Notes under the pieces: generated by a model | The model's input: the letters and a program-made list of their open reading frames with translations, nothing else | What the model was told of the DNA's origin: nothing | Database searches by the model: none | Position numbers and translations under genes: made by a program | In this document: positions 1-32,475 of the stretch, piece by piece | Position numbering within the stretch: the stretch's first letter is position 1 | Layout of the letters: each line of letters begins with the position of its first letter | Source: Jimgerdemannia flammicorona | Taxonomy: Eukaryota | Reading direction: 5' to 3' | Assembly (NCBI GenBank): GCA_003990765.1 | Contig: RBNJ01000126.1 | Location: 1 to 40,156, forward strand | DNA: 40,156 nucleotides

Positions 1-19
1 AAAAAAAAAAAAAAAAAAA
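1..19 (+). repeat. poly(A) tract, probably the tail of a non-LTR retroelement inserted in the Gypsy-A gag/pro region
   Basis: 19 A followed directly by tgctacctttggacag, which matches uninterrupted Gypsy-A copy 2 (minus strand, ~15800-15825). Confidence 0.55.
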
Positions 20-3000
20 TGCTACCTTTGGACAGCTAGTCGAAGTCTCTGCCTTCAGACAGCAGTTGAGAGTAGGACTTGCAACTACTGCCAAGAATCA
101 AGAGTACAAGATTGTAGAAGCTTACAATACACAGGAAGAATCTGAAAACTCAGATGAAGAATCTGAAGACCAGTGCAAGATATCAGCCTATACCCCATAT
201 CAGATTGAAGACTGTATCTTTGATACCATCATTGATACCAGTGTTGGAGAATGTCTTATGAGTAAGAAGACAATTGACTGCCTAGGCTGGGACATTGAAA
301 AGTCCACCAAGATAGTCTATATCACAGCAGATGGTACATGAGCTACCCCCCCTTGGCAAAATCCAAAAAGTCCCCATCAAGATAGGAGGAGCTACCATCC
401 CAGTAGATATGATTGTTACAAGCACCACCAACTATGACATCCTCATTGGCAACCAATGGCTTTACAAGGCCAAGGCCATCATTGATCTCAATGCCCAGAA
501 GATATAGATCAACTATAAAGAAAGAAAGGTATGAGTCTCTATCAATGTTCACAAAGAAGTCCTATCAGACATGGAAGAAGGAGATGAAGAAGACACAGAG
601 GTCTTCATATACTTGGTGAACAAGAACAAGAACAAGATATCCAAGCTCACAGATGAGCAGTGGTACAATAAGATCATCGATGGCTATGCTCCTCAAGGAA
701 GATGCCCCCATGGTACTAGGATGTACTGCTCTGAACACCTGAATAACTGCTGGTCCTATATCAGTAAAGTCAGGAAAATCTGCTAACAGAAACACAAGCA
801 AGAAGCCACTGAAGCAAAAAGAAAAGTTGAAGAAGATGACCAGCCCCCAGAGCTTCAAGCTGACAGTGATGATGAGGAGGAACAAGAATCAGACATTACC
901 CTCAAGGTCAAGAAGTTTCATCTTGAAGCCAAGATTCCAGAATATAAGACTGAAGGAGTCATAGGAATGGATCTTGCCAGCATTCAAGATACTACCCTTG
1001 AACCACAGACCATCACCCTACTTAGCACTAGAATTGGAGTCAAGTTACCAGAGAACTATGCTGGAATTATCAAGACTAGGAGTAGTCTGGCCAAAAGTGA
1101 AATCTCAGTTGAAGGAGGAGTAATTGACCCTGATTATACTGGCGAGATCTTTCTCATAGTTAGGAATTACAACCCTACTACCCCATTCGAAGTCAAGAAG
1201 CATGACAGGATTAGCCAGATGCTGATCCATGAAATCAAGAAGCCCAAGATTATAGAAGCCATCGAACTCATCAAGACTAAGAGAGGAGAACAAGGCTTTG
1301 GATCTACTGGAAGAGGAGCCTATGCTACCATCAAGATTACCAAACTCAAGCACAAGAAAGACAAGGACCAAAACAAGCATATATATACCATTAGAGAAAA
1401 CTTTCCTCTAGAAGAACAACTTCTCAAGATCCTGCATCAGAACAAAGAAGTACTTGCTATAGACTTTAGGAATATCCACAATCAAGAACTCAGGTACTAT
1501 TACAAAGTTGATACTAGTGATACCAAGCCCATCTACCAGAAAGCCAGACCTATACCACCTGTCTACAGAGAATGGCTGTAAGCAGAACTCAAGGAAATAG
1601 AAGAAGCTGGAATCATCAAGCAAGCTATCAGCCCCTGGACCTCACCCATTGTCCTTGCCCCAAAGAAAGGAAGTAAGCCTGGAGAGTTTGTGCCAAGACT
1701 CTATATTGACTACAGGAAGCTCAATGCCATCACCAAGAAGGATAGACAGCCCTTGCCAAATATTCAAGAAATCCTTACTATTCTTGGAAGCAAAGCCAAA
1801 TACTACACCACTTTGGATCTATTCTCAGACTTCCATCAGATTGGTCTCACTCAAGATGCCAGTGAGAAATCAGCCTACATCACACCTGACACCACCTATA
1901 TCTACCTGCAAATGCCATTTGGAATATACAATGCCCCAGCAAGTTTTCAGCAAATGATGAATAGAGTCTTTGGCAATGAGATTGGAAAATAGCTCTTTAT
2001 CTATGTTGATGATGTGATCATCTTCAGCAACACTATATGGGAATATGTCAATCACATACAACTAACCCTCAAGAAGCTTAAGGAGCATGGCCTCTACATC
2101 AAGCCCAAGAAATGTAAGTTTGCAGCTTAAGAAATCACCTATCTAGGATACCTCATCAATCAGACCGGAATCCACACAGACTCCATGAAGATTGAGACTG
2201 TTGTAGCCTACCCAAGACCCAGAACAACCACAGAAGTCCATGCCTTCCTTGGACTGGCCAGCTACTACAGAAGGTTCATTAAAGGATACTCTAACATTAC
2301 AGCACCTATCTATGAGCTACTGAAGAAGGAGACCAAATTTGAATGGACCAAGGAGTACTAAGAAATCTTCAATGAACTCAAGACCAGGTTGACCCAAGCA
2401 TCTATTCTCAGAAGACCAGATTGGAATCTAGAATTCATCCTGCAGACAGATACAAGTACTATAGGACTTGGAGCAGTCCTAGCTCAGAAGAAAGATAGAT
2501 ATGAATATGTCATCTCCTATGTAAGCTGAGGTACTCATAAAGTAGAACAGAACTATGAGTTATGTAAGCTTGAATGCTTAGCAGTAGTTTGGGCAGTAGA
2601 CAAGTTCTACTACTACCTAGCTGGGAAACACTTTACTATTCAAACAGACCATTCTGCTCTTGCCTGGCTATTCCACACTCTGAACCCCAAAGGAATATAT
2701 ACCAGATAGATCTACAGGTTGCAAGAGTATGACTGTACTGTCAAGCACTGCTCAGAAAGAACCAATACCAATACCAATACACTCTCAAGAATATCCTGAA
2801 ACACCCCTATCAAGACTATTTAACATGAATAAGGAGCTATACTATGGATTAATCAGCCACCTTGAGCAGCAGAAGATGCTCAACCACCTTGAACCCTGGA
2901 CAATCACCATCATCAACTGGACTTGGAAACAGTTTGAACTAGACAACACTATACTCAGAAAAGGAGGAAAGCTAGTAATACCTAAATATAAGAAGTATCA

Positions 3001-4072
3001 AGTAATGAAGGAAGTACACAAGCAAGGATATCTAGGAGGAACCAATACATACAACAAGGCAAGAAGAACTATATGGTGGCCCAAGATGGAAGAAGACCTG
3101 TACCAATTTGTCAAAGAGTGTAATAAGTGCCAAAAACAGAAACAAGATCAGTAAGACTAGGCACTTGGGTCATCAAGAATTGAGCCTATCCTCTTCCACC
3201 ACATTGCAATAGATATCATTGGACCACTACCAGTAACACTACCAGGAAACTGCTATATTATAGTTATTGTAGACCTCTTCACCAAATAGATAGAGGCAGG
3301 AGCATTACAAGAAGCCAATATCCTCTCTATAGCTGACTTCCTGCATCGAGAAATCATCTGCCACTACAAGACACTAAAGCAAATCACAACAGACCACGGT
3401 ACAGAATTTTTCAATAGATTACATGAGATAATGTATCAGAAATACAAGATCCAGCACATCAAGACCACCATGTACCACCCTTAAGGAAATGGACAGATAG
3501 AGAGAACCAATAAGACCCTCAAGAATATCCTAGTGAAGATCTCAGAGACATATGAGAATTGGGATAACTATCTCTCAACCACCCTCTCTGTCCTACAAGA
3601 CATATAGTCACAGAGTACACACTTCACCCCAAGGGAGCTGCTCTTCGGAGAAGAAGATTCTAATAGAACCTCAGCCACAAATATAGACCTAACTTAGAGA
3701 CAGATTGATGCAGAAATCTGGAGACTACACCAAATCAGGAAGAAGGCTGAAGATTACATCACCAAGTCACAAGCACTGATAAGGAAAAATGTGGAAAAGA
3801 ATCACAAGACCCTAGAATCCATTCGAATTGAAGAGAAGGTTCTACTATATCGAAATATGGTAGAAGCCTCATGGTCATGAAAACTGGAGCCCAAATGGGA
3901 AGGACCCTTCTACATGTAAGATATCAAGAGAACTACATTCTAGCTTAGAAAGATCTTAGGGACCATACTACCTACCATAGTACACAGAAACAGACTCAAG
4001 AAGTATCATAAACCTATATAAGAGAAGCAAAACATGATGACCACCCATAAGGTTCTAGTCTGTAAATCATAA
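20..4072 (+). pseudogene. pol: Gypsy pol polyprotein (PR-dUTPase-RT-RH-IN), inactivated by many premature stops
   Basis: ORF fragments 66-341, 571-786, 967-1581, 1690-1992 and 2729-3154 carry the motifs in Gypsy order; C-terminus HRNRLKKY...VCKS* ends at 4072. Confidence 0.93.
901..1314 (+). pseudogene. dut: trimeric dUTPase domain within pol, between PR and RT
   Basis: Motifs GMDL, TRSSLA, GGVIDPDYTGEI, DRISQ, RGEQGFGSTG. Confidence 0.93.
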
Positions 4073-4375
4073 CAGCATGTCCCATAACTAGCAGGCCATC
4101 TGTCTGGACCATTCTTTAAGAGATACAGCACTGGCAACTACTTATCCATGAGACTTTCGAAGTCAGAGGAGTTCAAACTATCAACTGATTGGTCAAGATC
4201 AGAATCAGGCCCTTGCTCTATATGAAGGGAGTGACCCTTTACCATCATACCAAAATACAAAGAGAAGATGCCAGCCTATAAACACTACTTTTTGACCCCT
4301 TGCCAGAGGTTATGGGATCAGCAAATTTTTCAGGGCTGGACCAATGAATAAGAATATTCGAGAAGATTCTTATTC

Positions 4376-4385
4376 AGGAGGAAGA
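4376..4385 (+). promoter_or_regulatory. polypurine tract
   Basis: aggaggaaga immediately 5' of the TGTAACA LTR start. Confidence 0.75.
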
Positions 4386-5964
4386 TGTAACAGTGACCTC
4401 AGAATAATGACATCAGCACAGGAGACAGTCTTTCCTTACAAGCCACCAGATTGGAGTACAAGAAGATCATATGGCATACAAGATGAGCAATAATGACCAA
4501 CTGTGAGTCATTGTGACCACAGTATGGTATCTTGAGGAATATAAAAGAAGGATCAAGGAACTACAGTAGCAGCAACCAACAAGACCCATCAATCCCAAAA
4601 TAGCTCAAAGACTTACTATAAACAAAATGCCTGCTGCCCATCAAACCTCAAGATCAAGGAACCACCAAGACACCTTAGTCAAAGAAAGGATGTTCCAAGA
4701 CATCAGAAGAGCCATGAGGACCTGCACAAGAAGAACTCCTAGTATCAACCTGGGTACTGGTGACCCTTATCACTATATCCTCTACCACTGTGAAATGGAA
4801 ACAAGGATCACCATTGCTACTGAATACCTCCAAATGTGGCAGAAATATGAAATAGGAAACCTTCTCTACTAGGAGTTCCCCCAGGCCAGCACTTAAGAGC
4901 TACAAGATATCATTTCTATGGATGTATATGAAATGAGGACAGCTAAGAAGATCCATCAGATCTTCAGATATGCACCATGGTTGATCCCCAACTTGGAGTA
5001 TATTAGAGTCTCAGATTTCAGAGACCTATCATCCTGCCATATCAATGTACTAGAAGCCAGGGTGGCTACAGAAGTCCAGTTCACTATCACTCTCAATAGT
5101 GATGAAGTAGAAGACTTCTGGCATCCTATCCTTCAGGATAACCCAGACCAATTCCTGTAAGGATTGATCTCAGTATTCTAAGACCCAAGCATCCAAGTTA
5201 GACCTCTCCAAGATTCCACATTTGTTCTCTATTTTATAGAAGAGAACTTCATAGATTAGAGAGCTCCAGATCTCCTTATTTCTGCTGCTGCCGAATATGA
5301 TGATGTCATCAGCAATAATGTCATCCTGCATGACTTTGACATATGTGAAATATGTGACCTATAAAACCTTGATGAAATGTTCACAGATCTCATCTCCTTT
5401 GAAGATATCCTGACCTCTGATGATGAGAATGAAGCTCCCATGATCCTGAATTTTCTGCTCTAAGTTCCTTGTTACACTGAATAATACCAGCACTGGCATT
5501 CTGAGGTGATACAAAATTGTTCCAGTACTGGCATTTGATGTAACACTGAATAATACTAGTACTGGTATTCTGATGTAACACCAAATTATATCAGTATCCT
5601 GAACCTATACAACCATCAGTACTGACCTTAGAACTTAGTAGTTTTTCCTATCCTGGCATCTTATTTTAGTTATTGGAATTTATATTTAGCTTTATATCTT
5701 AGCAACTATTGAATTATATTTTGTATAAATACCCCTCTTATTTCCTCTGAAATAAAGTCAGTTCCTCTCAGTACAATATACATACTTCCTTGCAAGCAAT
5801 CTAAGAGATAACAAGACAGTTTAAAGATAAGAAGTTTGAGAACTATAAGACCTTGGGAAGGTACTCCAATAAGAACTTGCTTATAACAAACTTGAGTTAG
5901 TCTAAGAGATATACCTTGAAGAGAATCTGGTATATTTGAAGAACTCAGCAATCACTATGTAACA
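4386..5964 (+). repeat. 3' LTR of Gypsy-A copy 1 (~1.58 kb, TG...CA)
   Basis: Starts tgtaacagtgacc after the PPT and ends cactatgtaaca. Homology to copy 2 starts and stops at the same points (26023 and 17155, minus strand). TATA-like gtataaatacc at ~5723; tandem ~30/59-bp repeats at 5470-5600. Confidence 0.88.
4627..5463 (+). pseudogene. LTR-encoded accessory ORF of unknown function (N-terminus may extend upstream)
   Basis: ORFs 4627-4872 and 4918-5160 and the continuation to 5463 share one frame. Homologous segments lie in the copy-2 LTR, which has CAA where this copy has TAA at ~4894. Confidence 0.75.
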
Positions 5965-6026
5965 ATAGTTAATAAAAAAAAAGTGGCTCAAAATCTCTGA
6001 ATTATATAGTTAGATAATAATCTGTT

Positions 6027-7152
6027 CTTTTTATTTTTTATTTTTATTATAGTTACTTGGACTTCTACTTTATTATCAACCAGTCTATGATATACTAATA
6101 CAGATGTATCCACCCCTCACCCAATCTTACAAAGAGCCTCCCCCCCCCTCTTCTCTTCAGAACATCACCATCTCCCTGATCATTCCAATCCTCCCCCCAC
6201 TCAGTCTACAAATCTTCTCCACAAGTCTTCTATAGAGCTCTCCTTTAGAGCTCCACCCCCACAACTAGTCATTTAAAAGATCCAGCACCAACTATTCCTA
6301 TCTTGTAATCTACAATCTAAGTACTAACTGCTGACTATCTTCAAATACATATAGCTAATATCTGGCAAGCTCAACCCAAATAGCCAGAGTCTACTTAAGA
6401 GTTAACCACTCATCACTAACTCCTTCCATCAACTTCTTTCAAAGATCACCCTACCTCTCATCCCCCCCCCTCTCACCTAGATGAGCATACTCTCATCTGA
6501 CCCTCAATAGTCCTCTAAAAGTCTTTTATAACTTCACACTCTCCCAATTAATACTCAGAGGTCTATACTATACCACTTTCTTACTTGATGTTAAGGTACT
6601 CCTTATACTCCAAAATACTCCCTTTTACCAAATATCCTAACTAATAGTTCAATATTACATTGTACTACAATAGTCTCCACTATACCACCCAGAACTTAGG
6701 GGAAATTCATCTCACCACCTGCTTACTCTAAGACCAAATACTATTTTAGTTCCACTCTTTACCTATCTCCACCTTCTGTTAAGTCTTAGACCACAAATCT
6801 CTTCTATACTTCTAAAGACATTCTATACTATCCTCTAAACTGAAATTATTCACTAATATATCTTCTAATAGAAGATAATTCTATCTCTATATCTGGGGTC
6901 TCCAGTCTATCTCCCTCTCATCATTCTATTATTAGAGATCAATTTGCCAAGCTCCATCAGCTACTCTCTATCAGAATCCCCAAAGTATATCTTCTGACTC
7001 CTCTTCAGTACTACCAGAGAGAGCAAATTATTAGATATACTACAGGGAGAGAAATATATCTCCTATATTCTCTACATAAGAAGTACCCCTCCTGGCCCCT
7101 CAGCCTCTAAAATCTGCTGAGCTACTTTTTATAACCTAGCCACCAAAATCTT
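6027..7152 (-). mobile_element. L1/Tx1-like LINE 3' fragment with internal deletion
   Basis: T-rich tail at 6027-6049, family 3' motif (atagttacttggact), decayed ORF2 C-terminus and RT piece KILVARL. Confidence 0.75.
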
Positions 7153-9822
7153 TATAACTAACTTATTATAAGTATACAACTCCTAAGCCACTGAAATTAT
7201 ATATCACTTTCTAAATAAATCTAGAAATTATATATAAGATTACAAAGCTGAGTCAACTTAAAGTTATAGAATATAAGATTTATATAAATGGAACCTTATC
7301 AATCAGAACTAAATACATATATACTGAGTACTTAGATATATTGAAATAGAGAACTACAATAAATAAAATAAATAATCACAACTCTTGAACATATATACAA
7401 CCATAACCACTGAGATCTACAACTATATCTATACTGATATTTGGAATACTATTATTAACTAAGCTCCACTCTCTCTACTCCTCATGAATATCTATAGCTT
7501 AGTACCTCTTTACTTTATAGAAGTCCAATAGAATACTCTGAACATGCTTAATGAAGTCTACCAAATTAGACAAATCTCAAGTTACTATCAGATCAGCTAT
7601 CTCCTAAAAGATATGGTCAAATATCACTATGATATAGACATTACTCAGATATCTCAATACTAGAAACTTATCATCTGCAAATACTAAGAACTCTTTTATG
7701 AATATAGTACCTTTATTCTCTATCTTTAAGTTACTACTACTGAAATAGTTATCACTCTATCCTATAGCCAAATTGATAATATAGTATAAGAACTCAATCA
7801 CAAGTATATTGAGTATATTCAAACTATAGACAGAACCTTCCTATATCCTAATGACCATATCCTACAAATGCTCCAAGTTGGATATACCATGAAGAATATC
7901 TATGATATAATTCAGTTTGATAATAATGAAGCAGAAGATAATGATCTCTCTGATACTAATATGATCTTCAGATAAGAATTCTTACTAGTTCTGATTATTC
8001 CACCAATCTTGCTGATGAACTTACAACAGTTCATAACTATCTATGAGACCTATTGGGATAATATAAGTGTACAATCTTCAAGCTACTGAAATTACACATT
8101 ACTCTCTGAATAAATCTGAAAATTATATACAAGATTATAAAGTTGAGTCAAACCAAAGTTACAGAGTACAAAGCTGAGTCAACTTGAAGTTACAGAATAC
8201 AAGATTTACATAAATAGAACCTTACTAATCAGAACTAAATATATATATATCAAGTATTAAGATGTATCAAAACAGAGAACTACAACAAATTAAACAAATA
8301 ATCCCAACTCTTAAATATATATACAAATATGACCACCAAGATCTACAACCACATCTGTACTAACATTTTGAATACTATTATCAACTGAGCCATACTCTCT
8401 CTGCTCCTCATAAATATCCATAGCCTGGTACCTCTCTATTTTGTAGAAGCCTGATAGAACACCCTGAACATACTCAGTGAAGCCCACTAAATTGAACAAA
8501 TCTCAAACTACTATTAGATTGGCTGCTTTCTAGAAGATATAGTTGAATATTACTATAATATAGACATTACCCAGATATCTCAATACTAGAAATTCATTAT
8601 TTATAAGTACTAAGAACTCTTTTATAAATATAGCACTATTATTCTCCATCTCTAAGTTACTACTACTGAAATAGTTACCACTCTATCTTATAGCCAAATC
8701 GATGATACATATGATATAAGAACTCAACTACAAGTATATCAAGTATGTTCAAACTATAGATAGAACCTTTCCATACTTTGATGACTATATCCTGCAAATA
8801 CCTCAAGTTGGATATATTATAAAGGATATCTATAATATAATTCAGTTTGATAATAATGAAGTAAAAGATAATGATCTATCTAATACTGACATGATCTCCA
8901 GCCAAGGATCTCTACCAGTTCTGATCACCCTACCAACCTTGCTAATAAACTTATAACAGTTTATAACTATCTATGAGATCTATTAGAATAATGATTACTG
9001 ATATGAGTACCAACCTACATTTACTCTCAATTACTTCAACTATAATGAAGAGACTGGAGAACACAATCTATACCTTCAGACAACTCTTGAGATTGAACTA
9101 ACAACTTTACTACCTAAGTATAAATAATACAAATAATAGCTACCAGCTTACTACAATCCAGTAATACATAGTGCCATAATCTATAGAAGATATACAGACA
9201 GTAAATCTGATAAAAGTAAAGATAATATACCTCTCTTTTACCCACCAACTCTATATCTAATATATGAGACAGATGATACTATCCTGTAGGATAGTAATGA
9301 GGTTCCAATATATTATTATCTGAGTGAATAGAGAGAAGTAATCTGAGAACTGCTCTTTTTAGATAACTACTTCATTAGAGATAATGTCATTGATGGTAAT
9401 GTCATTAAAGACTACCCAGATAGCATCTAAATCTATAGATAGCTTAGCAGTCATTAATATAGTTAAATTAGCCTTATATAATATAATTATATACTAACTC
9501 AGTAGTCAGACAATCTCTTAATATATCAGTTTACAATTATACTATATAACTGCACTCCAACTCAGCAAAATACTAAGTGCTATATCTATATTTAATATAG
9601 TCCAGATAGCCTCCTATTAGTATAAATACCCTCTCTCCCAAATCTTAGAATCTCAGACAGAAACAATTAAAACACAACTTCTGAGCATTTTTCCATAATA
9701 TTTCTTCACAACTACTCCTAGTATAGCAATATCATGAATAGTGAATAAACTTATTTAATAACCTACAAACCACTCTTAAGTAAATCTATATCTTATTAGA
9801 TTCCACTCTTAACTATATTACA
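7153..9822 (+). repeat. long LTR of Gypsy family B containing an accessory ORF relic and an ~0.9 kb tandem duplication
   Basis: Begins tataac (mutated tgtaac) and ends tattaca; TATA gtataaataccctctc at ~9620 is nearly identical to the family-A LTR TATA; followed by a leader and gag-like sequence. No second copy to confirm the ends. Confidence 0.6.
7167..8991 (+). repeat. tandem duplication, units 7167-8061 and 8062-8991
   Basis: Both units start tataagtRtacaa...ctgaaatta and end ctatgagaYctattRgRataa; differences are mostly transitions. Confidence 0.9.
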
Positions 9823-11325
9823 AAATTTCCTAATTGGGTATTGTCTATAGTGATACACTAATTCAACTAAGCTAGTCTTAGTTTCTTGAACTTCCTGAAA
9901 TATGGAAAATCCTGAATATTCAGAACTAGTCCAAATAAGGACTTTGGTTGAGACATCAACCCAATCTTAAAATCAATAAGTATAGAGGACATACTCTATA
10001 TAAAATTGATCTTAACCTTAAAGAAAATAGTCTTTCTGAATATCCAGAACTTCCAAAAAACCCTTTCAGAACTATATAATAGTTACTCTAACAAGTAACC
10101 CTCTTACAACTTGATAGCAGTAGTTTATAATCTAATTCCACTTCAAGATGCTTCCTCACTCTACTATAAATCTCTATGAGAATTCTTACAAGTTAGTATA
10201 AAGCCCAACCTCTGAACTAGAATTTATCCTGAACCATCTAACAATCTGGAGAGAATTGAATCTAATATATAAGAACAATTTGATCTCTATACTTATAATA
10301 AGTGGGACAGACTATAAAAAGAAGTACTCCAATTAAATCAGCAGATAGATGAAACTCTATATATTGAACTCTTTACTTTACACCCTGCAAGTTAAGATGA
10401 AGAAGGTCTTATAGAAGTCTTCTTTACTCTTTGCAATAAGAGTTTTATTAGCTCTACAAACACAAATAACCTAGAACAACTAGAAGCTATCTTTCTAGTC
10501 TTAGTTCCTCACAAAGCCTAAGTCTCTATAGCTAAGTGGCTCAACTCTATCAACTTTCACCATATCAGAACCAAGACTGCCTTATACTATTGCTTCCAGA
10601 ATTACAAAGCCCACTATATTCTTAAAGAAGAAGCAAGAGAAACTCTTTATTAACAACCTGACCCCAAATCAGAAACAGGTTTAGCTACCTAAAACTGTAA
10701 CTAATACTGAACCAGATTAGACTCTTGAACTAAGCCCATCTGAAATCTGATATACTACTGATACTATTTACTTTGATACTAAGTAAACTCAACTATATGG
10801 GAATCAAAGCCAAGAGGAGGAGAAGTATCTCAGTGAATTCAATTCTGAATATACTACTGAAAGAGATATATCTCTATCAGGACAGAACATACCTATATAG
10901 TAACAGACAGCTATCTATTGAGCCCTTACTCTAGACCTACAATAATTACTCCAGCAACTTATATAGACTCAAAAAACACCATTATACTCTATACCAGTAT
11001 CTCAAGTTATATCAGTAATACTATTACCAGTAGTTTAACCACCTTTAGTAAACAACATGGCAAACCAATAGATTCTAGATCTCACAGCCCAGGTAGCTAT
11101 AATGATAGCAATTATTCTTAGCTGAACAGACCTGAATAATAAAAAGTCTGAGTCTACCTATCTTCAATGATACTATATAAGAAGTTCAAAGCTTCATTAA
11201 TATAGTAGATACTAATTTCAAAGCCAACCAATAGACCAATGAATGAGTTGCTGACTGCCTTCTAACAAACAATCAAGACCATATACTGGAACAACTCTTT
11301 GCTACTACTACAGTCTATATCCATC
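9823..11325 (+). mobile_element. Gypsy-B internal 5' region: upstream coding relic and gag N-terminus (ATG 11057), truncated
   Basis: MANQ*ILDLTAQVA...VQSFINIVDTNFKANQ*TNE resembles a retrotransposon gag N-terminus; follows the putative LTR. Confidence 0.55.
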
Positions 11326-11371
11326 AAGTTGTTATATTCTTTTGAGGACTTGCCAAAGAATAGTGGTGAAC

Positions 11372-11398
11372 TTTTTTTTTTTTTTTTTTTTTTTTTTT

Positions 11399-11433
<35 letters not shown>

Positions 11434-17082: not shown

Positions 17083-17669
17083 TGTAGTAGTTGTTTTTTA
17101 TTTAGCTTAAAAGTGAGAGATCCTAATAGTATTATTAGCTAATAAGTACTAAGTTATCATATAGTGGGTGCTGAGTTCTTTAAGTATATCAGATTCTCTT
17201 CAAGATATATCTCTTAGACCAACTATAAGTTTCTTATAAGCAAGTTCTATTAGAGTATCTTTCCAAGGTCTTATAGTCCTCAAACTTCTTATCTTTAAAC
17301 TGTTCTGTTATCCCTTAGATTTACTTGCATAGAATTAAGTAGAGGACTGGAACTTTTATACTCTTGAGTAGTTGAGTACTTGAATGCTTGAGTGTTTTAA
17401 TACTGACTTTATTTTAAAGGAAATGAGAGAGGTATTTATACAGAATATAATTTAATAATTACTAAGATATAAAGCTAAATATAAAATCCAATAATTAAAT
17501 AAGATATTTAAATATAGAAAACTTCAGATTATAAGTATAAATTCAAGTGCCCATATAATTGATTGTATAAGATCAGAATGCTGGAATAATTTCTGACAGT
17601 TATATGAGATCAGAATACTGGAATATTTAAGTATTCAAAAAAATAGTTATATAAATAAATTAGAGTAGA

Positions 17670-19186: not shown

Positions 19187-19526
19187 AAATAAATTAGAGT
19201 AGAATGTTCAAAATCCTGGAGGTTAGAGATAGGATATCTTTAAAGAAAATTAGATTAGTGAATGTTTCTATAAGCATTTCATTTATTTTGCATATTTCAC
19301 ATATATCAAATAACAAGATGATATGTATCTTTATTAGTGATATCATTATGTTTGATAGTGGTAAGAAAGAGATCAGGGGCTCTCTAATCTATGATGTTTT
19401 TCTTTACAAAGTAGGAGACAAAGGTGGAATCTTGAGGGGGTCTGACCTGAATACTGGGGTCTTAGAATACTGAGATTAATTCTTACAGGAATTGATAAAT
19501 TATCCTGAAGGATGGGATTTTAGAAC

Positions 19527-22500
19527 TTTTTTTTTTTTTTTTATGGTCACTTAGACTCCTTTATTACCTATATTTATCTAATACAACTATGACCCTATAC
19601 AATAACTGTGACAACTACAAAGTACAAAGAAAGGCTTATTAGTCAATACTCTCCTTTTACTACACCTCTCTATCATCAAGCACTAGGTGCTCTCGACTCC
19701 TCTGTACAATATTCTATATCTTTCTCAAGACCCCTACTACTGTCTCTTTCCCTGATACCACTACTCTTATGCCATCTCCTGGAGTAGCTACCTCCACTGC
19801 TCCACTAATTCACTAATTCCCATCCATAGATCTCACTCCAACACCCATTACTAATATACTGCTATCAGGACCTAGACTTCTAAGATATAGCCCAGACTAC
19901 TCCAGACATTCCCAGTCTCTCCCACCAGCTATCACTTGACCACCTGACTAGTGGGGCCTCCTGGTTGCCTACTCTCAGAATTTCAATAATCTTCCAATGT
20001 CTGCCAATACCTCTCTATATCTGAACAAGCTACCAAGACATGCTCTAGCATCTGAACCATCTTCTTATCTACCTCACTATACTACTTATATTCCCTACTA
20101 CCTTCTATCTTCATCCATCCTATTCAGTAGCCCAGTATCACATTCTTTTTCAAGAATTGCCACCACACAACTCAATACTTAGATAGTACAACCTTGAGCA
20201 AGGATGCCCCCCAACTCCAGACCTAACTCTACTCTCAATCTTCACCAAACCCAGCCTTCTGCCAATCTACTGGCCACCTCTCAAGTGGGCCAGTTCTGAT
20301 CTATTCCATAGCCTCAGACAGAGAGTACTCTGTCAACTAGTAGTCACTAATGTGAAGGCTCTCTAGTTACTACCATCTCTACTCAGGATCCTCCCTCTCT
20401 CTCAGCTCCAGACCTATTAAACTTATTACCAGCCAGGCCTCTACAATACCCCACCAGAACTCCTTATACCACAATCTGCTGACTCTTCCCACCTGAAGCA
20501 AACCTTATATATCCTTCCAAACCTCACCATGGAGGCAGAACCTGATCTCCCAATTATCCATAGCCAGCCTGCCCCAACCATCCTCCCCTAGTTCAGCTAA
20601 TTGACAACTCCACCAACCCCAGAGTATCTTCAACTGTCTCCTGAAGTCCACCAGCCTCAGACCTCCATTTACTGTCTACAGTACTACTATCTCTCAACTA
20701 ATCTGCAGCCACATAGCCATCCTTCCACCACTTTCTTCAGCCTCTATACTACTTATCCAGAAAAATCCAGGTGGTATCTCAAATACCACAACTTAGGTAA
20801 CCAGTATATATTTAAAACTACAATTCTTCTCATCAAGGAGAAACTCCTTTCTGACCAATCTGTCAAAGCTCCTTTCTACTTTTGTATCATACTACACCAC
20901 TACTCCATTAGCAGTACCATTACATATACTGAAAACCAGATACCCAAATATTGAACTACTTTTCCTGTGGTCACTATTTGTCCAAAATACCCATTCTCTC
21001 CCAGACCAGCTCCAAGCTCCATTGTCTCACACTTGCCCCAATTCAATTTTGCTCCTGTCAGCCTCTCATACTGTCCAACCTCTTCCTGTAGGCCTTTCAT
21101 ATCCTCTAAGCAACTGAGCCTGACCACCATGTTATCTGCAAAACCCCCAGCTTCCAGACCATATTCTCCATCTATAACCCAGTCAACTATCCCTTCAATC
21201 AAACTAACAAAGGCTCTAAGGACAAAATATAGAGCAGAGGGGAAAGAGGATCCTCCTGTAGCACACCTCTACTCAAGGCAAACTCTGGGCCACACCACCC
21301 ATTCATCAGTACTGCTGCTTGGTAGTCTTATACTAGATTCATCAATCTTCAAGCATCTACTGCACCAAATCTTGCCTTCTGCAATACTGCCTTCAAATAG
21401 TTCTACTGCACTCTATAATATACTTTTTCTTGATCCAAAAAGACCATCCACCCATCAACTTACTAGCTCCTGCAGCTCTCTAGAACATTCTGCACCCAGG
21501 CAGTACTGTCTCTAATCTGCTTCCTCTTTATGAAGCCTCACTGGTCCTCACTCACCAAACAGCCAATCCACTACTACATTCTCTCAGCCAGAATTTTAGA
21601 CACCAACTTCCTGTCCATGTTCAGTAACATAATAGGTCACTAGTTCTACCACATATATCAATCTCCTTTCTCTTTATACAGCAGAGAGATAAACCTTAAA
21701 AAACTATTGCCAATTTAGCAGCCTTCTCTCAAAATGAAGTTTGCCATTTCTACTAACTATCTACCAAACTCATCCTAGAACTCCTTCCAGAATTTCCAAG
21801 ACAGCCCATCCTCCCCAGATAATGAATCAGCCTATACATTCCTCAGCACCTCCAATACCTCTTCAAGGATCACCATGTCCATCACTATCTCATCTATCTC
21901 AGGAACTGCTACCACTGGTCAACTGTCAACTAAATTGTCATTATTCTCCTATAAGACCTCTCCCTCCATAAGCTCTCCTTCATCCTACTAGAGAGCTTAC
22001 CATTGTCCAGAGACCTCTCTAAGTATATCTGCAATTTCAGTAACCTCAATACTATTCTCCCACAGTACTGAAGTCTAGCTATATTACACTCTTCTGACCT
22101 TCAATATATCTGATAAATATTTGGTAGACCACTCTCCTTCTTCCAACTGTCTTGCCTATAGCCTTACCAACAGACCATCTACAACTCTATTCTCAGCTGT
22201 CTTTAGATCCAACTTCAACTCAGCCACCTCTATGGCCAACTGAGAGTATCTCTCTCCTGATAAGTTTTCCCCTTTCAAAAACCTCAACTACTATCACAGC
22301 CCTCACTCTACTCTCCTCTATTTATCCTTCTGCTCTTTTCCAGCTACTTCCCCAACATCATACCAATAAGTATCTGTCAAATGTTTAAATTTACCCCACC
22401 ACTGCTCTATCTGCTATCCACTCTCCTTCCACTACATCACTTTCTGCCTTATAATAGCTACAAATTGTTTCTGCTCCACCTGCCTTCTGAGTAGAGCTAT

Positions 22501-25290
22501 ATTGAGTTGCCAGTGACCTCTATCCCCACTGACTATCTGAAATCTTCCACACACCTCCACTCTCCAATGATCTGACTAAGGGCACTACTGTACCAGTATA
22601 TTGCTCTAGTATTCTGCCACCAGAATCTAATCAATTCTCATTCCCACTAGATTCTTACCAATGAGATACCACCTAGTGAAGGGCTCTGGCTTCTCTCTCT
22701 GATGCTACCAGATACTATCAATCAATCCCATATCTCTCTCAACCTGAAGCCATCATGAGAGCCCAGCTGAGATAGCTACTCCAACTCTACCATCAGGTCT
22801 ATCTAATGTCCTATCACATACTATATTAAAGTCCTCCCCCAGAATGTCCAGCCCAATCTCCTCTTGGTCTCCCTAATCTAGCCAGCCCTCCACTCATTAG
22901 TTTCACTCTCTGCCAACTGCCAGAAGATAAATAGAGTCCACAATCAGTCTATCCTTAGCTCCTCTTTTCAATCTACTCTATATCAATTGATCATTATATA
23001 ACTCCATCTCTATTAGCTCACCTCTTCCCACACTCACCAGAATGTCCACCTGTTCATTTCAACCTATACTGCCATACTACTCCTTGCTCTATTTCTCATA
23101 ATCTTGCTTACCATAGAATCAAATATCCTGAAGAAATACTACATTATATCTTCTGATCTTTAGCCAATGAAATAGATACTGCCACTTCACTCTATCTTAC
23201 AGACTATTGACATTTTATGATAAGATATACAGACTATTTATCATTATCAGTAGAAATGTTTAGAGCTCTATAGAGATTGCCACCACCTTCTCAGTCTGAC
23301 CACAGATTATTTCCTTTTGTTCCTTGCAAATAGTCCTCCAGATACAGGCTCCATTCACACTATCACAGAAAGTATCCATTCTCTCAGATACCACTTTCCT
23401 GATATCAGCCATTTGGTTCTCATCTATATTATACTCTTCATCATCTAGAAGTACTGCTACCATCACTGTTACCAACTTTGATCCCTGCATAGTAATATTG
23501 AGAAATCTCTCCCAAGCCTCCTGAGATCCATTAAACACATCCACTTCTTTGATATCTTCCTCCACAAGTTCTTCAAGCACCACTTGATACCAGCTGTTAG
23601 CTGTCATCACTAGAGGCCCAGGGGTGGCAGGTCTAGGGGTCCTACTCAACTCCTGTAGTATCTCTCTATCTGCTAAAATATTAGAGACCACATCCATCAG
23701 ATCATCCTCCTTTAGTGACCTTCTCCAGCTGTACTATCTCACCTGCCTCTGAACACTCCCAATGAACATTTGCTGCCTCTATTATATGGATGTCCTTCAA
23801 CTGAGTCTCTGGTACTATCTCAGTAATATTCTCAAAACCCCCTTCTCTCACCTCCTCCTTATCAGCCTACTTCTCCTTTACTAGTACATGAGCTGAGGTC
23901 TCCACACTACCCAGCTGCAAAAAGGATACCTTGGCTGTCTCCACCTCCTCTATCTGACTCTTGGCTGCCTCTATCCTTGCCTCTTTCTCCACTTTCAAAA
24001 TCTGGAGAACTATCTGCAGATATTCTCAGTTTGCTTTCTGCCACCTCTTCCTCCTCTCATCTGTCAGAATCCAGATTTAGTCCTTGGTGAACTTCTCCCA
24101 TCTCCTCTTTTGCAAATCATTCACAGCCTCTCTCTCCTCCAGAACAAGTAATAATTCCTCCTCCTTCTGTTCAGATCTCTTTCTTCTCCATACCTTGTAC
24201 TTCTGACCACTGATACAAATCACCTCTGGTCAGTCTATGACCTCCTTGTCCTCCAGTTGTATCATAATCTCACAGTTGTCATTCCTCAACTTAGTCCTCT
24301 CTCAGAATATGAATCTAAAATCAACTATCTCACTAAAGCCCCCTAGCACCTCTACCACAATCCCCTTAGTCTCCTGTCTCCCCAATATCAGCAACCTCTC
24401 TACCACCAGATATACAGCATACAGATTCTACCTCAAGTACTTTACTATCCCAATCTTGATATTCTTAACTACCAACTCTTTCTCCAGAGTCTTCACTATC
24501 TCCTTCTTCTCCACAAAGCCAATCTCTACTGCCTCTGCTGACAGAATAAATTTCAGAGACTCTGCAATAGTAACCTCCTCACCCACTAGCTACAAAACCT
24601 CTCTGATAGATATATTCAGCTTCAAGAAGTTCACCAAGATTGCCTACATTAATACTGATTTATAAAAGAAAGGTCACACCATCAGTTCACCAGAGTTCAC
24701 TGCCATTGTCATCTTCTTCTTATTATTTAAAACTCTGGCAGTCACCCCTTCAGCCCCTACAAGCCCACCAGTAGTTCTTCCACTAGCCACTGGCTCAACT
24801 CCAGGAATACAAGTCCTAACTATCATATCTCCAGACTCCTGTCTCCTGCTAAGCACCTGACCAGTCAACTGATCAGTTACCTGACTCCTCCCCCTATCAA
24901 TACTATGTTCTCTCTGCCCTACCCTCATGGGCCTAGCAGTAGTCCTTCTGTCCCCTACTACAGTATGCTAAGTTTCGATACCAGTAGGCCTCCCCTGACC
25001 ACCTGCTCCACCAGCAGTAGCACCAGCCCTAACTACTACTGCAAAACTCTTAGAGAGGCCCAGGCCAGGCCTCCTCCTCTCTAAATACTCAGAGCTTGAT
25101 GAATCTTGGATCACCATCAGATGAAAACTCAATGGATTTTGATGAAACTTATTGTATACTATTGTTAGACTCTTGCTACATCTGATACATCTAAGAATGT
25201 GAAGTGAAAACTTGAAAGCATATTGCTTTTCACATAAGGATGCTTGTGTGGCTTAGCTTGGTCAGTTTGATTTGAGCAAAAGAAGTCTCC
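19527..25290 (-). mobile_element. full-length L1/Tx1-like LINE (~5.8 kb), decayed
   Basis: poly(T) at 19527; TSD tgggattttagaac (19513-19526) vs tagaatttcagaac (25291-25304), 3 transitions; ORF1 ~25117-23260; ORF2 from ~23244 with APE start (ILS*NVN) and RT motifs (FADN, YLGI). Confidence 0.9.
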
Positions 25291-26407
25291 TAGAATTTCA
25301 GAACTCTTCTATCTCATTACTTTTGAGAGTAATGGTAGATTGGACTTCTGTGACCACTATGGCTTCTAGTGCATCTATGCAGCAGACTAACAATTCCTTG
25401 AAGTCTGAGACTCTGGTATACTCTAAGTTAGAGATTGATTAAGATACATAACTGAAGATCTGATAGATCTTTTTAGCTACTCTCAATTTATATATATCTA
25501 TAGAGATATCATCTTGTATCTCTTGAAGGCTGATCTGAGAGAATTCCTAGCAGAGAAGGTTTCCTATTTTATATTTCTGCTATATCTAAAGGTATTTAGT
25601 AGCAGTAGTAATCCTTATCTCTATTTCATAGCAGTAGTGGGTAAAGTGGTAAGAGTTATCAGTATCTAGGTTGAGACTAGGAATCCTTCTGGTATAGGTC
25701 CTCATAACTCTTCTGATATCTTGGAATATTCTTTCTTAGACTGAGAAGCCTTGGTGATTTCTAGACCTTGCAGTTTAGTGAGCAGTAGATATTTTATTTA
25801 TAGTAAGTCTTATTTGAGTTACTACTACTATGGTTTCTTAGTTCTTCTTTTATATTCCTTGAGATATCTATTTTGTAGTCATCATGACTTATAGTTTATT
25901 ATTATTGCTCATCTTGTAGTCTGGGTGAGTCATACTATATAATCTTCTTGTACTCTAATCTAGTGGCTTATAAGAAAAGACTGTCTCCTATAATGATATT
26001 ATCATTCTAAGGTCACTGTTACAATATATCTATTTTTACTTACTCTTTTTTCTCACTCTCTTTTATTCACCCATTATCTTCCATTTTCTGCTTCTGATAC
26101 CTTATCTAATTTCTCAATTTCTCTCTCATCTCTCTACCTCTATCTAATTATTAGTATAAGTTATATTATATATATAGCTGAGTATTATAATATAATGAGT
26201 AGTTACTCTTGATTTTTTGTCATATTCTTGTACTTTAGTTTATTATATATAAGTTAGTTTCAGCTATCACATATTGTATTATTTACTTATTCTAATTCTA
26301 AGAGATACTGCAATCTTTATTTACTTATATATACTTAGTATTTATATATATTTGCTTTATAGCTAAGTATACTTACTAAGTATGAGACTAAGTTAGATAG
26401 CAATTCT

Positions 26408-26706: not shown

Positions 26707-26717
26707 CTCTACATAAC

Positions 26718-27559: not shown

Positions 27560-28050
27560 CTTTCTTCTGAATAGGTAATTTGTCTCTAAAATATCTTATT
27601 CACTCAAATTCCCAAGCTTCTATAATTTGTATCTCTTTGTACTATGTAATTTATATCATTATATTCTCTCAATAGTGTCTTCTAATTTGAGTAAAGTCTC
27701 TTGAGACTACTTCTTGAAAGTATACTAGAGCTGGCTCATCATCTTTGAATAGCTTATATGCTTTATTTAGCAATAGTGATCTGAGTATGAGAGAGCTGGT
27801 ACTCTCTAATCTAGTCTTCTTTTTCCATCTCTGACTGTGAATTCAGTAGCTATGTATCTTAACTTAAAATATTTCTGAAGCTCTATCTAGTTCTGATAGG
27901 TCTTAAAGTATGAAATTTATAATAGGTGTGTCTGTACTATACTTTGGATACTGTTAAAGAATTACTCTATTGTGAGTAGCTCAGTAGTACACTATTGTCC
28001 TTCTATGGCTCATTGCATAGTACTAGTAATCTTAAGGACTGTGGCCATAC
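27560..28050 (-). pseudogene. accessory ORF relic between integrase and PPT, homologous to the LTR ORF of families A and B
   Basis: Translates LQKYFKL...KAYKLFKDDEPALVYFQEVVSRDFTQI. Confidence 0.6.
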
Positions 28051-28824
28051 TTTATTGACTAGTCATACATAATACTTCTTAAGTTAGTTTTGATAAATAG
28101 TAGTGGGGATAATTGTGTCTGAGAGTTTTCATAGCCAAAAGGTAGTTCCTTTTATATCTTGTACTAGGTAAGGTCCTTTTCTCTTAGGCTTCAGTTTTTG
28201 TGACCATGAAGCTTCTACTATATTTTAATATACTAGAACTTTGTCTTCTATCTTGATAATCTTCAGTGGCTTATAAATCTTTTCTGTATTATTCTGTTAT
28301 AGAGTCTATACCTTTATTATCTAATTCTCAGCCTTTTTCTAATTTGATATAGTCTCTGAATCTCTATTTTTATATAGTGTCTCTATTAGATGATAAGATT
28401 TCTTGGAAACTTTCTTCTCTGAATAGTATTTTCTGAGGGGTAAAATATGTACTTTGTGATTAGATATCTTATAGAGCAGATAATACTATTGATAGATAAT
28501 AATACTAGTTTTCATAGTTATTACAAATCTTAGCAATGATATTCTTAAGAGTTTTATTAGTTCTTTCTACTTATTTATTTCCTTGAGGGTAATAGGCTAT
28601 AGTCTGAATGTTCTGGATCTTATACTTCTTATAGAGAATTTCAAAGAACAGGCTTACAAATTCTGTTCCTCTGTCTGTAGTTATTTATAGTGGAGTCTTG
28701 AATCAGTAGATAATTTCTTTATAGAAGAAATCAGCTATTGACTATATATTGACTTCTTTGAGAGGTCCTGCTTTTATCTATTTCATAAAAAGATCTACAA
28801 TAAAAATGATATATTAGTTGCTAA

Positions 28825-29363
28825 TAGTGCTCCTAATAAGTCAATTTAATCTAGATTGGATTCAGATTGATTCAGATTAAATCTCATCCAGATTAACCAT
28901 TGTTTTGATTTCCAAATTAGACAATTAAATATTTATATTAATAACTTGATGAATAATCATCCAAATTTGATAATCTTGATATCATTTGAATATCCTTAAT
29001 AAGGCCTTTATAATGATATCAAGATCATTGAAATCAGATTATATATTGCTGAGTTATTAAGGAAAACATCTGACTTGCCAATTTTGGAAATTATTCAACT
29101 TGCTGATTTTGGAAATTATATCAAAAGAATGTTTTCTTTAATATCTTAGCAACATATAATCCAATTTTAATGTTCTTAGTATTATTAGAAAGACCTTATT
29201 AAGAGCTTTTAAATGATACCAAGATAATATAAATTGGATAATTATTCATCAAGTTATTGATGTAAATATTTAATTGTCTAATTTGGAAATCAAAACAATG
29301 ATTGATTTGAATCAATCCAGATGGGATTCAAATCCCATCCAGATCAACTTGTTCAGAGCACTA
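28825..29363. mobile_element. hAT-type foldback MITE, family B (539 bp)
   Basis: TIR TAGTGCTC...GAGCACTA; 8-bp TSD gttgctaa/gttgctgg; long internal inverted arms; interrupts Gypsy-C integrase. Confidence 0.88.
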
Positions 29364-29988
29364 GTTGCTGGTTAAGATCAGAAGTAGAGAGCCAATTACA
29401 TTAATTGCTATATGGGTAAAGGGAACTAGTTCTATATATACTAATTCTGAAGTCTGATTTCATTAGTCTTATTTCTATTTTTGGTATTTGTCACAGGTTC
29501 TGCTAAATCATCTGATATTTTCCTCTATTTCTGATTACTACATTATTCTTCTTACTTTATTATAGGTATTTATTCCTTTTAAATAGTCAAATTTGTATAC
29601 TGATTTCATTACTTATATATTTCTTCTTTTATTTAGATATAACTAGTAGCTTTTCTTTCTTCAATATTTCTCTATTGGTTTCAAATTACTTTTATATCTT
29701 GTTGATAATCATTTATATCTATTCTTCCAGATGTTGGAGCATCTTTCACTATTCTAGATAAATAATAATTCTATAGTAGAGCTCTCTATTCATGATTAAT
29801 TTACTAATTGAGAGTTCTTTAGAGTGTTTATAAGAGAGTATCTCTATTGGTATTAGTTCTTCTACAATAGTATATAATGGTTACATAATAGGCTTGCAAC
29901 TTTATAATCTATCTAGTATAGATTTCTTTAGATTGTCTAGTAATTAGTAATTAGGTGAGAGCTGAATAATCTGTCTGGATGGTAAAGT

Positions 29989-30412
29989 TAGTGCTCCCAA
30001 ATGAGTCAAATCAATTCAAATAAAATCAAATTGAGGGTTAAATGAGTCGAATCAAATTGGGGATTTTTCAATTCAAATCAATTCAAATCGAATCAAAAGT
30101 CAAATTGAATTGAGGGTCTAATTCGAACCCTAATTTTCAAAATGCAATATCTCAGCGTAAACTCATCCAAATCTAACGTACTTTAGCTTGTTAGAATCAC
30201 ATTAATACAGTGAATCTAACAAGCTAAAATACGTTAAATTTGGATGAGTTTTCGTCGAGTTATTATATTTTGAAAATTAAGGTTCGAATCAAACTTTGAA
30301 TTGAATTGGACCTTTGATTTGATTTGAATTGAATTGAATTAGACCCTTGATTCAATTGAATCGAATTGAGTTTGGGCCAAATTCGATTCGATTCAATTTG
30401 TTGGGAGCACTA
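29989..30412. mobile_element. hAT-type MITE, family A copy 1 (424 bp)
   Basis: 12-bp TIR TAGTGCTCCCAA; 8-bp TSD ggtaaagt/gataaagt; central ~170-bp hairpin; interrupts Gypsy-C RNase H. Confidence 0.93.
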
Positions 30413-32475
30413 GATAAAGTATCTCTCAATAATATAGTAGTAGAACTTTTCTATAGTCTAGATAACTGTGAGATATTTCAGCCTATAGGATTTATATTCT
30501 TTTTCAGCTCTGCCGGTTCCTTGGCTAAGATATGTAATAATATACTTTACTTTGTCTTTCTTCTGGGCCAGGATTACTTCTAGTTCTTGTATACTTGCAT
30601 CTGTCTATAGAATGAATTCTTTAGTCCAGTTAGATCTTCTGAGAATAAGTACCTGGGTCAGTCTGATCTTGAGTTTACCAAATATCTTTTATTGTCTGCT
30701 GGTCTATTGAAACTTGATATCTTTCTTATTAAGTTCATAGATTAGGCTTGTAATGTTGAAGAACTCTTTGATAAATCTACAGTAGTAAGAGGTGAGTTCC
30801 ATGAAGACTTGGGCTTCAGTGATAGTTATAGATCTTAGATATACTACTATTGCTTAAATCTTAAGAGAGTCTGTATATATTCTATCTTAGTTGATAATAT
30901 GACTAAGATAGGAGATCTTGATTTTTACAAACTTATACTTCTTGAACTTAATGTATAGACTATGCTTTCTCAACTTCTCTATTATTTATTAGATTACTAT
31001 AGATGTTCTTCTGGTATCTTGTTATAGATAATTACATTATTTACATAAATCATCATCTATCTTCATATATTATAGTAGAAGATCTTATTCATTATTTACT
31101 AGAAACTTGCTAGTATAATATATTCTAAATAGTATTTATAGGTAAATATAAGTTCTATCTAAAATAATGAAGGCTGACTTCTCACTTATGCTTCTGTGAG
31201 GCCAATTTGATAAAATTCTGAATATAAGTCCAAGGTGCTATAGTACTGTACTTCATCTTCTAAGGTTATAATAATATTACTGATAAGAGGTAATAATTGG
31301 TGATTCTTCTTGATAACTAGGTTGAGCTTCTATAATTAGTGCAGAGCCTTGGGGCAAATTCTCCTAGCTTGCTTCCTTCTTTAGAGCTAGTATGACTGAT
31401 GAAGCCCAAGAACTACTGGCTTCTTTAATGATACTAGTCTCTTCTATCTGCTTAATTTCTTCTCTGAGTCATTTATAGTAGACTGGCAGAATGGATCTTG
31501 CTTTTTGATAAATTGGTTTAGTATCTCCTATATCTATATTATAATAGTAGTATGGGGTCTTTTCTTTAATATTCTTAAAATCTGTTGTCAGAATATTCTT
31601 GAATTTATAGAGTATCTTCTTGAGTTCTTTCTTAAGTGGGAATTTATTTTTAATGATATAGCTATACTTGCTTGTAGTTTCCTCCTTTTTGTAATCCAGT
31701 TTAGTGATCTTGATACTGATGAATTCCTCTTCCTGTAGATCTAAATTCTTTCCTTTCTCCCTCTATTTCCTCCAACTTCTTAACTTTTATAATCTTTAGC
31801 TGTAGAACTGGGAAGATCAACATCTGTACTAGTCAGTTCTTCTTCTTAATTGAGAATAAGATTGTAGGATTGTGATTTCTAATAATGAGTAGTATTTCTT
31901 CAATATAATCTGAATTAATGACTTCTCTTTTAATGATAATTTCACTTTTAGCCAGACTGCTTCTAGTCTTGAGAATCCCAATTTGATCTTTTGGAATGAT
32001 TATCTTCAGACTGATCACAAGTAGGGTAGTTGTCTGGAGTTTGAGTATAGTTTCTTCTACTATAGCAATATCTATTATAGCTGTATTCTCTGACTTATAT
32101 TCTGGTAGGATAGAATTAGAGTGAATTTTCTGAATCTTGATCTTAATCTCTTCTTTATCATTACTATCTTCCAGAAGAGCTGATGGATTATCATTCTCTT
32201 TCTCTACTTGTTTCTCAAGAGTCTTCTGCTTTCTCTTATAGTAAATTTTCTTGATTATACTAGTATACTGGTAGCAGTCATTAATATACTCCATGCAGTA
32301 CATTCTGATCTCATGAGAGCAGACTCTTTGTAGTACATATTCTTCTACAATTTTCTTACATCAGTTCTTTTTACTGATTTATTCAACTTTCTTTTTCTTT
32401 TTCTAAGTAATCACTATATAGGCTTCTTCTTGCTCACTTTCTTCATCTATCTTGAAGAGTACTTCTTTGTTGATT

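Follow-up and report, generated by a model that had tools for sequence, protein, structure and literature searches.

The long terminal repeats (LTRs) of retroelements are usually regarded as regulatory sequence without coding function: they are masked by annotation pipelines, and a solo LTR passes for a dead remnant. To our knowledge, accessory genes encoded in U3 are known only from vertebrate retroviruses such as mouse mammary tumour virus (MMTV), whose Sag product is a type II membrane glycoprotein. The nef gene of the human and simian immunodeficiency viruses (HIV/SIV) is an accessory gene at the 3' end, with a coding sequence that runs into the U3 of the 3' LTR. Can a protein gene also reside within the LTR of a Gypsy retrotransposon? 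The question is raised by a 40,156-nt stretch of Jimgerdemannia flammicorona contig RBNJ01000126.1 (GCA_003990765.1), here called the window, which consists of nested decayed retroelements, and in particular by an open reading frame (ORF) situated in the LTR of a Ty3/Gypsy element, termed element A. In the passages of the literature cited here, Athila-like elements carry extra ORFs (PMC2864245, where a figure legend also names an 'add. ORF'), captured ORFs are described in bdelloid rotifer elements (PMC5408684), and Postia placenta elements, e.g. PosPlaTy3-5, have a dUTPase between the protease (PR) and the reverse transcriptase (RT) (PMC2864245).

A first-pass annotation of the window had proposed that the same accessory domain recurs in three divergent Gypsy families, A, B and C. 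What is present is a conserved, undescribed protein gene inside the family A LTR; the three-family domain is not real. With good confidence, the three stretches do not form one domain: that of A represents the conserved centre of an accessory gene of ~271-278 codons, contained wholly within the 1.58-kb LTR of a dUTPase-bearing Ty3/Gypsy family, and those of B and C resemble it by chance, in AT-rich DNA that transitions have degraded. Directly supported are the LTR boundaries, the ORF with its intact relatives, its decay in step with pol, and a second copy split by an insertion that resembles a long interspersed nuclear element (LINE). The features of element A are as follows.

1 to ~5964, plus strand: element A, Ty3/Gypsy, with its 5' end cut by the window edge
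364..3481, plus strand: pol domains of element A, from Pfam on frames read through stops
4376..4385, plus strand: polypurine tract of A, ten purines directly before the TG of the LTR
4386..5964, plus strand: 3' LTR of element A, 1579 bp, with TG start, CA end and imperfect inverted termini
4540..4547, plus strand: TATA-box-like motif, a regular-expression match, identical in both LTR copies
4627..5463, plus strand: LTR ORF of 278 codons and a stop, with 6 internal stops and matches to intact proteins
4846..5031, plus strand: the A stretch of the first-pass annotation, best-conserved central block of the LTR ORF (alignment with seven relatives)
5724..5756, plus strand: second TATA-like motif (5724) and AATAAA (5751), regular-expression matches, conserved in both LTR copies

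The pol region of A is well defined. Pfam places the protease at 364-519 (RVP_2, E 1.3e-5), the dUTPase at 925-1311 (1.9e-26), RT at 1693-2151 (RVT_1, 8.9e-29), RNase H at 2344-2730 (RT_RNaseH_2, 6.9e-30), and the integrase (IN) zinc domain and core at 2978-3145 (Integrase_H2C2, 4.2e-14) and 3200-3481 (rve, 8.1e-8). The Ty3/Gypsy order PR-RT-RNase H-IN is thus present on the plus strand, with the dUTPase between PR and RT, and is repeated on the minus strand in a sister element, A'. A chromodomain gave no Pfam match in element A at E<=0.01.

How are the limits of the LTR established? Three segments of A have minus-strand counterparts: 4386-5128 at 26023-25291, 5123-5411 at 19518-19231, and 5658-5958 at 17505-17161. 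The minus-strand copy lies directly upstream of the internal region of A', and the A copy lies 3' of the pol of A. Similarity between A and A' begins exactly at 4386, after the purine run, and ceases at 5964; beyond either limit the two sequences are unrelated. Family C has kept the junction of purine run and LTR start as well, at 27568-27551, although the surrounding sequence cannot be aligned. The parts of the sister element are these.

25291..26023, minus strand: 5' LTR of A', part 1; 74% identity with A 4386-5128
19519..25290, minus strand: non-LTR (LINE-like) retroelement, RVT_1 7.1e-8, with an A-run at its 3' end
19231..19518, minus strand: 5' LTR of A', part 2; 73% identity with A 5123-5411
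17161..17505, minus strand: 5' LTR of A', final part; 76.7% identity with A 5658-5958
17160 down to 11945, minus strand: A' internal region, truncated at 11945

The A' segment 15838-11945 is 80-81% identical to A 3-3873 and has the same pol domains. A remnant of the ORF is found in the first part of the A' LTR (25786 to 25295; profile positions 3-166, 223.5 bits) and another in the second part (19494 to 19282; profile positions 175-245, 65.8 bits), so that the 5.8-kb LINE-like insert splits this copy of the ORF between profile positions 166 and 175. Other peculiarities of the two LTRs and of the adjoining A' sequence were also seen. A GC-rich (~54%) 9-bp minisatellite occupies 17850-18900 within the A' LTR, at a place where the interval in A is just 247 bp long (5411-5658); the stop-free 'ORFs' of 318-358 codons that it gives in all three minus-strand frames are repeat artefacts. 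By eye, two tandem sub-repeats of ~60 nt follow the ORF stop in the LTR of A (5470-5580), the first opening with a heptamer considered below, and the translation of 17160-15838 shows what resembles a decayed zinc knuckle, consistent with the gag region that should follow a 5' LTR.

The ORF itself extends from an ATG at 4627 to a stop codon at 5461-5463 (LTR positions 242-1078), and begins 241 nt into the LTR, downstream of the polypurine tract. When frame 1 of 4570-5559, with stops read through, was searched against the protein collection, three of the 412 candidates, intact proteins of 271, 247 and 215 residues, matched it at E 1e-110 to 5e-82 and 68-73% identity. The C-terminal residues of the A ORF are common to all three, and its start methionine is shared with the 271-residue protein. 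A family profile scores 558 bits against the A copy across profile positions 1-275, with the start codon and C-terminal end shared with the relative P0001. In an alignment with seven relatives, the intact proteins have sense codons at each of the six positions where the A ORF has an internal stop.

The pattern of decay is that of a coding sequence. Stops make up 7 of 279 codons in the ORF frame, terminal stop included, compared with 14 of 846 in pol and 7 of 300 in the integrase; the other two frames across the ORF have 13 and 27 per 278 codons. The ORF frame is like pol in its stop density, and the A ORF has therefore decayed in step with pol, unlike non-coding DNA. Mismatches between the two ORF copies in the window are distributed over the first, second and third codon positions as 33/33/53 (p=0.033) and 19/6/21 (p=0.013), and those of the pol controls as 64/39/70 (p=0.009) and 57/32/85 (p=5e-6); two non-ORF parts of the LTR show no codon periodicity (p=0.59 each). 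From these sequence comparisons, the A ORF looks like an old third gene under selection. An old, selected third gene had been postulated for all three families; the idea holds for A, with its shared start, its periodicity and its relatives at 25-47% identity, and fails for B and C.

The relatives form a small family. An exhaustive phmmer search of 1.84 billion representatives gave six proteins at E<=0.001; one of these, P0007, a 2033-residue repeat protein matched via 14 short stretches, was rejected as spurious. Profile searching found 12 relatives among 8000 scored candidates from public protein sets; 10 are clusters of one sequence, each from a single contig of 567-4848 bp, and there are no Pfam domains in any of the 12. 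P0014 (E 9.6e-4) was excluded from the 13-sequence profile, and P0004 was not recovered in the profile search. The family falls into three subfamilies, with 71-80% identity within the A type and 25-47% between subfamilies, and the longest member of each subfamily has the aligned start. The C-terminal end motif is present only in the A-type members that reach the C-terminus and in P0006, where it lies partway through a longer tail. Fused or longer forms were absent among 8000 scored candidates of 600-2000 residues, which is weak evidence on the point. Two individual sequences are unusual by eye. The C-terminal third of P0011 resembles an antisense reading of the LTR beyond the ORF, suggestive of a hairpin-like or chimeric contig, and P0012 differs from P0010 mostly by loss of arginines, the pattern that transitions would produce in a decaying copy whose frame is still open.

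What kind of protein is this? The first 45 residues of P0001 contain 10 K/R versus 2 D/E and the last 56 residues 3 versus 17; its isoelectric point is 4.5, with 4.5-4.9 across the LTR-ORF proteins. Maximum 19-residue hydropathy is 0.74 for P0001 and ranges from 0.64 to 1.07 among the LTR-ORF proteins, values too low for a membrane segment. The three LTR-ORF proteins scanned are all without a Pfam family at E<=10, and an 8-sequence profile found no match in PDB sequences at E<=10. AlphaFold2 gave a mean local confidence (pLDDT) of 33.7 from a single sequence and 48.9 from eight sequences, with a predicted template modelling score (pTM) of 0.39. The A stretch falls within residues 61-160, the sole part of the model with pLDDT 59-76. 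Foldseek against the PDB, run on this poor model (pLDDT 48.9), returned no match at E<=0.001 among 293 at E<=10, and two comparisons with the ESM Atlas gave best scores of 0.83 and 0.85, which is chance level. The protein is predicted, with low confidence, to be mostly helical. An all-helical, possibly helix-turn-helix (HTH)-like product had been proposed; in Pfam, in PDB sequences and in the Foldseek comparison with the poor model, an HTH or other known fold was not found.

Does one domain link A with B and C? The regions to be compared are the following.

7164..8062 and 8059..8992, no strand assigned: 'B', two head-to-tail AT-rich units of ~930 bp, 79.7% identical
28021..32140, minus strand: element C, a decayed sister family of A, with 66-68% DNA identity to the pol of A and A'
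27680..27875, minus strand: the C stretch of the first-pass annotation, in the spacer between the end of pol homology (~28021) and the polypurine tract/LTR start (27568-27551)

The peptides quoted in support of a shared domain are indeed present in A, B and C. The A stretch reads in one frame, with 62 residues and 2 in-frame stops. The B stretches belong to the two duplicated units and have 64 residues with 3 stops (7580-7780; B1) and 65 residues with 4 stops (8510-8705; B2). In C, the short motif that opens the stretch and the remainder are read in different frames, and the 'domain' there requires a frame hop. Smith-Waterman scores were compared with 2000 shuffles per pair: A-B1 scored 20 (reached by 74.1% of shuffles), A-B2 25 (19.4%), A-C 22 (21.4%) and B1-C 20 (48.4%), and the positive control, B1-B2, scored 229 (0 of 2000). 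The best local alignments lie outside the register that had been proposed, which therefore cannot score above these optima. The gap-free alignment with its conserved hydrophobic spacing, taken earlier as a sign of homology, is thus a similarity at the level of chance.

More sensitive comparisons point the same way. In a six-frame tblastn comparison, A 3800-6100 matched the C and B regions only at the C-terminus of pol shared by A and C, with nothing at the proposed stretches at E<=10. Profile hidden Markov models, a kind of check that had been suggested, were built from real relatives (4, 8 and 13 family sequences) and run against six-frame translations and 792 overlapping 300-residue windows; all three profiles match only the A and A' LTRs, and nothing significant appears at the B or C stretches. 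The best B2 window reaches 0.6-1.1 bits (E 9-12 over the 792 windows), in a different register. No B1 window ranks above 46th and no C window above 136th, the C windows scoring -2.1 bits with the 13-sequence profile. Alignments coded as purines and pyrimidines, and hence blind to transitions, gave z from -1.6 to +1.7 in eight comparisons, with positive controls at 57 and 62. Pairwise, profile and transition-blind tests are thus all negative for B and C.

The nature of B and C bears on this result. B was taken to be a Gypsy family, a claim that finds no backing: no gag or pol domain was detected, stops occupy 5-13% of codons in every frame of 7100-11370, Pfam has no match in B at E<=0.01 and, at E<=10 in 7100-11370, only DUF5338 (0.074). 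Polyprotein similarity is lacking as well, as tblastn with the sense frames of A, A' and C gave only two matches at E<=1, of 12 and 22 residues. B is without a recognisable Gypsy or coding signal, and its status as LTR or Gypsy is not demonstrable. By eye, B has on each side (6020-7100 and 11370-11945) a T-run, which is an A-run on the minus strand, with C-rich sequence after it that is alike at the two places; the T-runs look like 3' ends of one minus-strand non-LTR family. C, on the other hand, is a genuine relative of A. The lack of DNA similarity that had been reported is correct for the stretches and incorrect for pol, as the identities listed above indicate, and the C-terminal pol match to A has an E-value of 1.2e-21. 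The pol of C is broken up by palindromic insertions. Stops occupy 18 of 443 codons in the RT-RNase H frame of C and 9 of 153 in the best spacer frame; the pol of C is about as broken as the spacer, so stop density is powerless as a test of past coding. The positions assigned to the putative domain, inside the LTR in A and upstream of the polypurine tract in C, are correct, and the assignment to an LTR in B is not demonstrable. There is no sign that an LTR boundary moved across a shared domain.

Could B and C nevertheless carry the same domain, decayed or diverged past detection, as first proposed? The kinship of C with A is in favour, as is the heavy decay of C, which could hide a remnant, and the top windows of the 8-sequence profile outside the A' LTR segment near 19500 are two that cover B2 in the proposed frame. 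The B2 score is nonetheless negligible and its match is in another register, the windows of B1 and C rank far down, and the transition-blind z values are nowhere near those of the controls. Moreover, the C stretch is separated from that of A by the conserved polypurine tract and LTR start and needs a frame hop, and B is devoid of any Gypsy signal. We regard this proposal as very improbable. A different possibility concerns the LTR itself: the ORF might instead be internal, a third ORF at the place of env, with pol on one side and on the other a short 3' LTR of ~495 bp that would start near 5470. The sequence upstream of A' would then represent the 3' part of a third family A element that shares an LTR with A' in a tandem array. 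A TG-start heptamer at 5470, located 7 nt past the ORF stop and perfectly inverted to the last 7 nt of the LTR, could mark such a shorter LTR; 495 bp is a more usual LTR size, and the window lacks an LTR pair. The 19 nt that precede 5470 are pyrimidine-rich, however, so there is no polypurine tract at this point, while 4386 is immediately preceded by the run of ten purines, which family C has retained along with the LTR start. A third element would also have to end exactly at the 4386 junction, because the similarity stops there. A short LTR is therefore unlikely.

The LTR ORF might, alternatively, be real and purposeless for the element, i.e. a captured fragment of a host gene, or an ORF that is open only in young copies. 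The small number of relatives, mostly single-sequence clusters on short contigs, would suit this explanation, as would the absence of a known domain or fold and the listing of open copies only in databases. It is difficult to reconcile with the three subfamilies, which at 25-47% identity retain the aligned start and conserved blocks, and with the end motif in the A type and P0006; without selection on the protein, such retention would not readily be accounted for. Host-like forms that are longer or fused were not found, although this counts for little. We judge a purposeless ORF to be quite improbable. There are, in addition, several points that weigh against an LTR-borne gene under selection. 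No element in the window has both LTRs, as the 5' end of A is cut by the window edge and the 3' end of A' is lost; LTR status is therefore judged from boundaries and context in place of paired LTRs and a target-site duplication. The heptamer at 5470 has been mentioned. Periodicity of transitions by codon can stem from base composition as well as selection. As databases hold predicted ORFs only, the finding of open copies is partly an ascertainment effect, and the 12 relatives are represented by their protein sequences. Promoter and polyadenylation motifs are read by pattern only, the structure models are poor at both alignment depths, and there is no homologue with an assigned function. The decay of C is also too heavy for stop density to exclude an extinct coding region in its spacer. 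Even so, the gene inside the 1.58-kb LTR of A remains the reading that we prefer.

How might such a gene be expressed? The ORF ATG follows the TATA-like motif at 4540 at a distance of 87 nt, with no ATG between; this motif could drive a separate ~1.2-kb mRNA from any LTR. The TATA-like motif at 5724 and AATAAA at 5751 are probably the promoter and polyadenylation signal of the genomic RNA. Because this conserved motif at 5724 and the hexamer lie downstream of the stop codon, the ORF would be located in U3 and would ride at the 3' end of the genomic RNA. The product is predicted to be soluble, acidic and mostly helical, its N-terminus basic and its C-terminal tail very acidic. With low confidence, it may be a trans-acting regulatory helper, e.g. 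in nuclear or RNA handling or in transcriptional activation. A wider hypothesis, which is tentative, is that each LTR of the lineage, solo LTRs included, constitutes a self-contained gene with its own promoter, an ORF of 271-278 codons and the LTR polyadenylation signal. It would encode an undescribed regulatory protein, with basic N-terminus, helical core and acidic tail, that acts in trans on element transcription or RNA handling; this would be a retrotransposon counterpart of the U3 accessory genes of complex retroviruses, of an age sufficient for at least three subfamilies to have arisen.

The remainder of the window also has a bearing on its history. Pfam scans covered six frames of 7001-17800, as well as 34200-40156 on the plus strand and 19519-25290 on the minus strand; 25291-34199 was characterised by DNA similarity to A and A'. 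Over 90% of the substitutions between A and A' are transitions, with transition:transversion counts of 165:8 and 162:12 in two pol segments; as nearly all differences are of this type, decay by C-to-T type mutation is indicated. The excess of transitions, together with a GC content of 22-30% in B and C, fits decay that is driven by methyl-cytosine or is similar to repeat-induced point mutation (RIP). Three palindromic stretches look like insertions resembling miniature inverted-repeat transposable elements (MITEs), in or next to C: two ~425-bp elements, 29989-30413 and 33789-34214, which are 92% identical and each internally palindromic, and a third stretch of ~430 bp at 28886-29312. One more element completes the window.

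34200-40156, plus strand: second RT-bearing non-LTR retroelement, RVT_1 E 2.8e-25

This element is GC-rich (45-56%) and far less decayed than its AT-rich neighbours, and is on that account probably a younger insertion.

What is the significance of a conserved gene inside an LTR? As the gene is wholly inside the LTR, a complete element would carry two copies and a solo LTR one; every solo LTR could still express a transposon protein, there would be two gene doses per complete element, and LTR-LTR recombination would not remove the gene. The finding would extend U3-encoded accessory genes to Gypsy retrotransposons, and it adds a protein family without a known domain. The case also shows that by-eye resemblance of motifs in AT-rich, transition-decayed DNA is no evidence of homology. 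Is the arrangement new? In the literature, subscription journals aside, no description was found of a protein ORF in the LTR of a fungal or other LTR retrotransposon, and the 'add. ORF' of the figure and Additional file 1 of PMC2864245 may bear on novelty. In the texts retrieved, the term 'LTR ORF' refers almost always to MMTV, and a Talaromyces paper applies it to pol ORFs.

Compared with described elements, the backbone of A, A' and C, with the order PR-dUTPase-RT-RNase H-IN, is similar in arrangement to that of the basidiomycete dUTPase Gypsy elements as these are described, and the portion of PMC2864245 that deals with them makes no mention of an LTR ORF. The additional ORFs of other lineages, i.e. 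the env-like ORF3 of Athila/Gypsy elements and those of the bdelloid elements, are comparable in being lineage-specific extra genes, accessory or of unknown function, beyond gag and pol. As described in the available accounts, these lie in the internal region, whereas the A ORF is inside the repeat, past the polypurine tract. It differs from an env-like ORF3 in that it is not between pol and the 3' LTR and has no signal or membrane segment. With nef, the likeness consists of an accessory gene at the 3' end with coding sequence in U3; nef only overlaps the LTR, however, whereas the A ORF is wholly inside it, and there is no similarity of sequence or fold. MMTV sag is characterised by just such an ORF within the LTR. 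MMTV is a vertebrate betaretrovirus and element A a Gypsy retrotransposon, and the LTR-ORF protein differs from Sag in sequence and in lacking a membrane anchor, having no hydrophobic segment and no Pfam match at E<=10. What the two share is a coding ORF inside the LTR and hence in both LTRs, with the assignment to U3 in element A drawn from the motifs downstream of the ORF.

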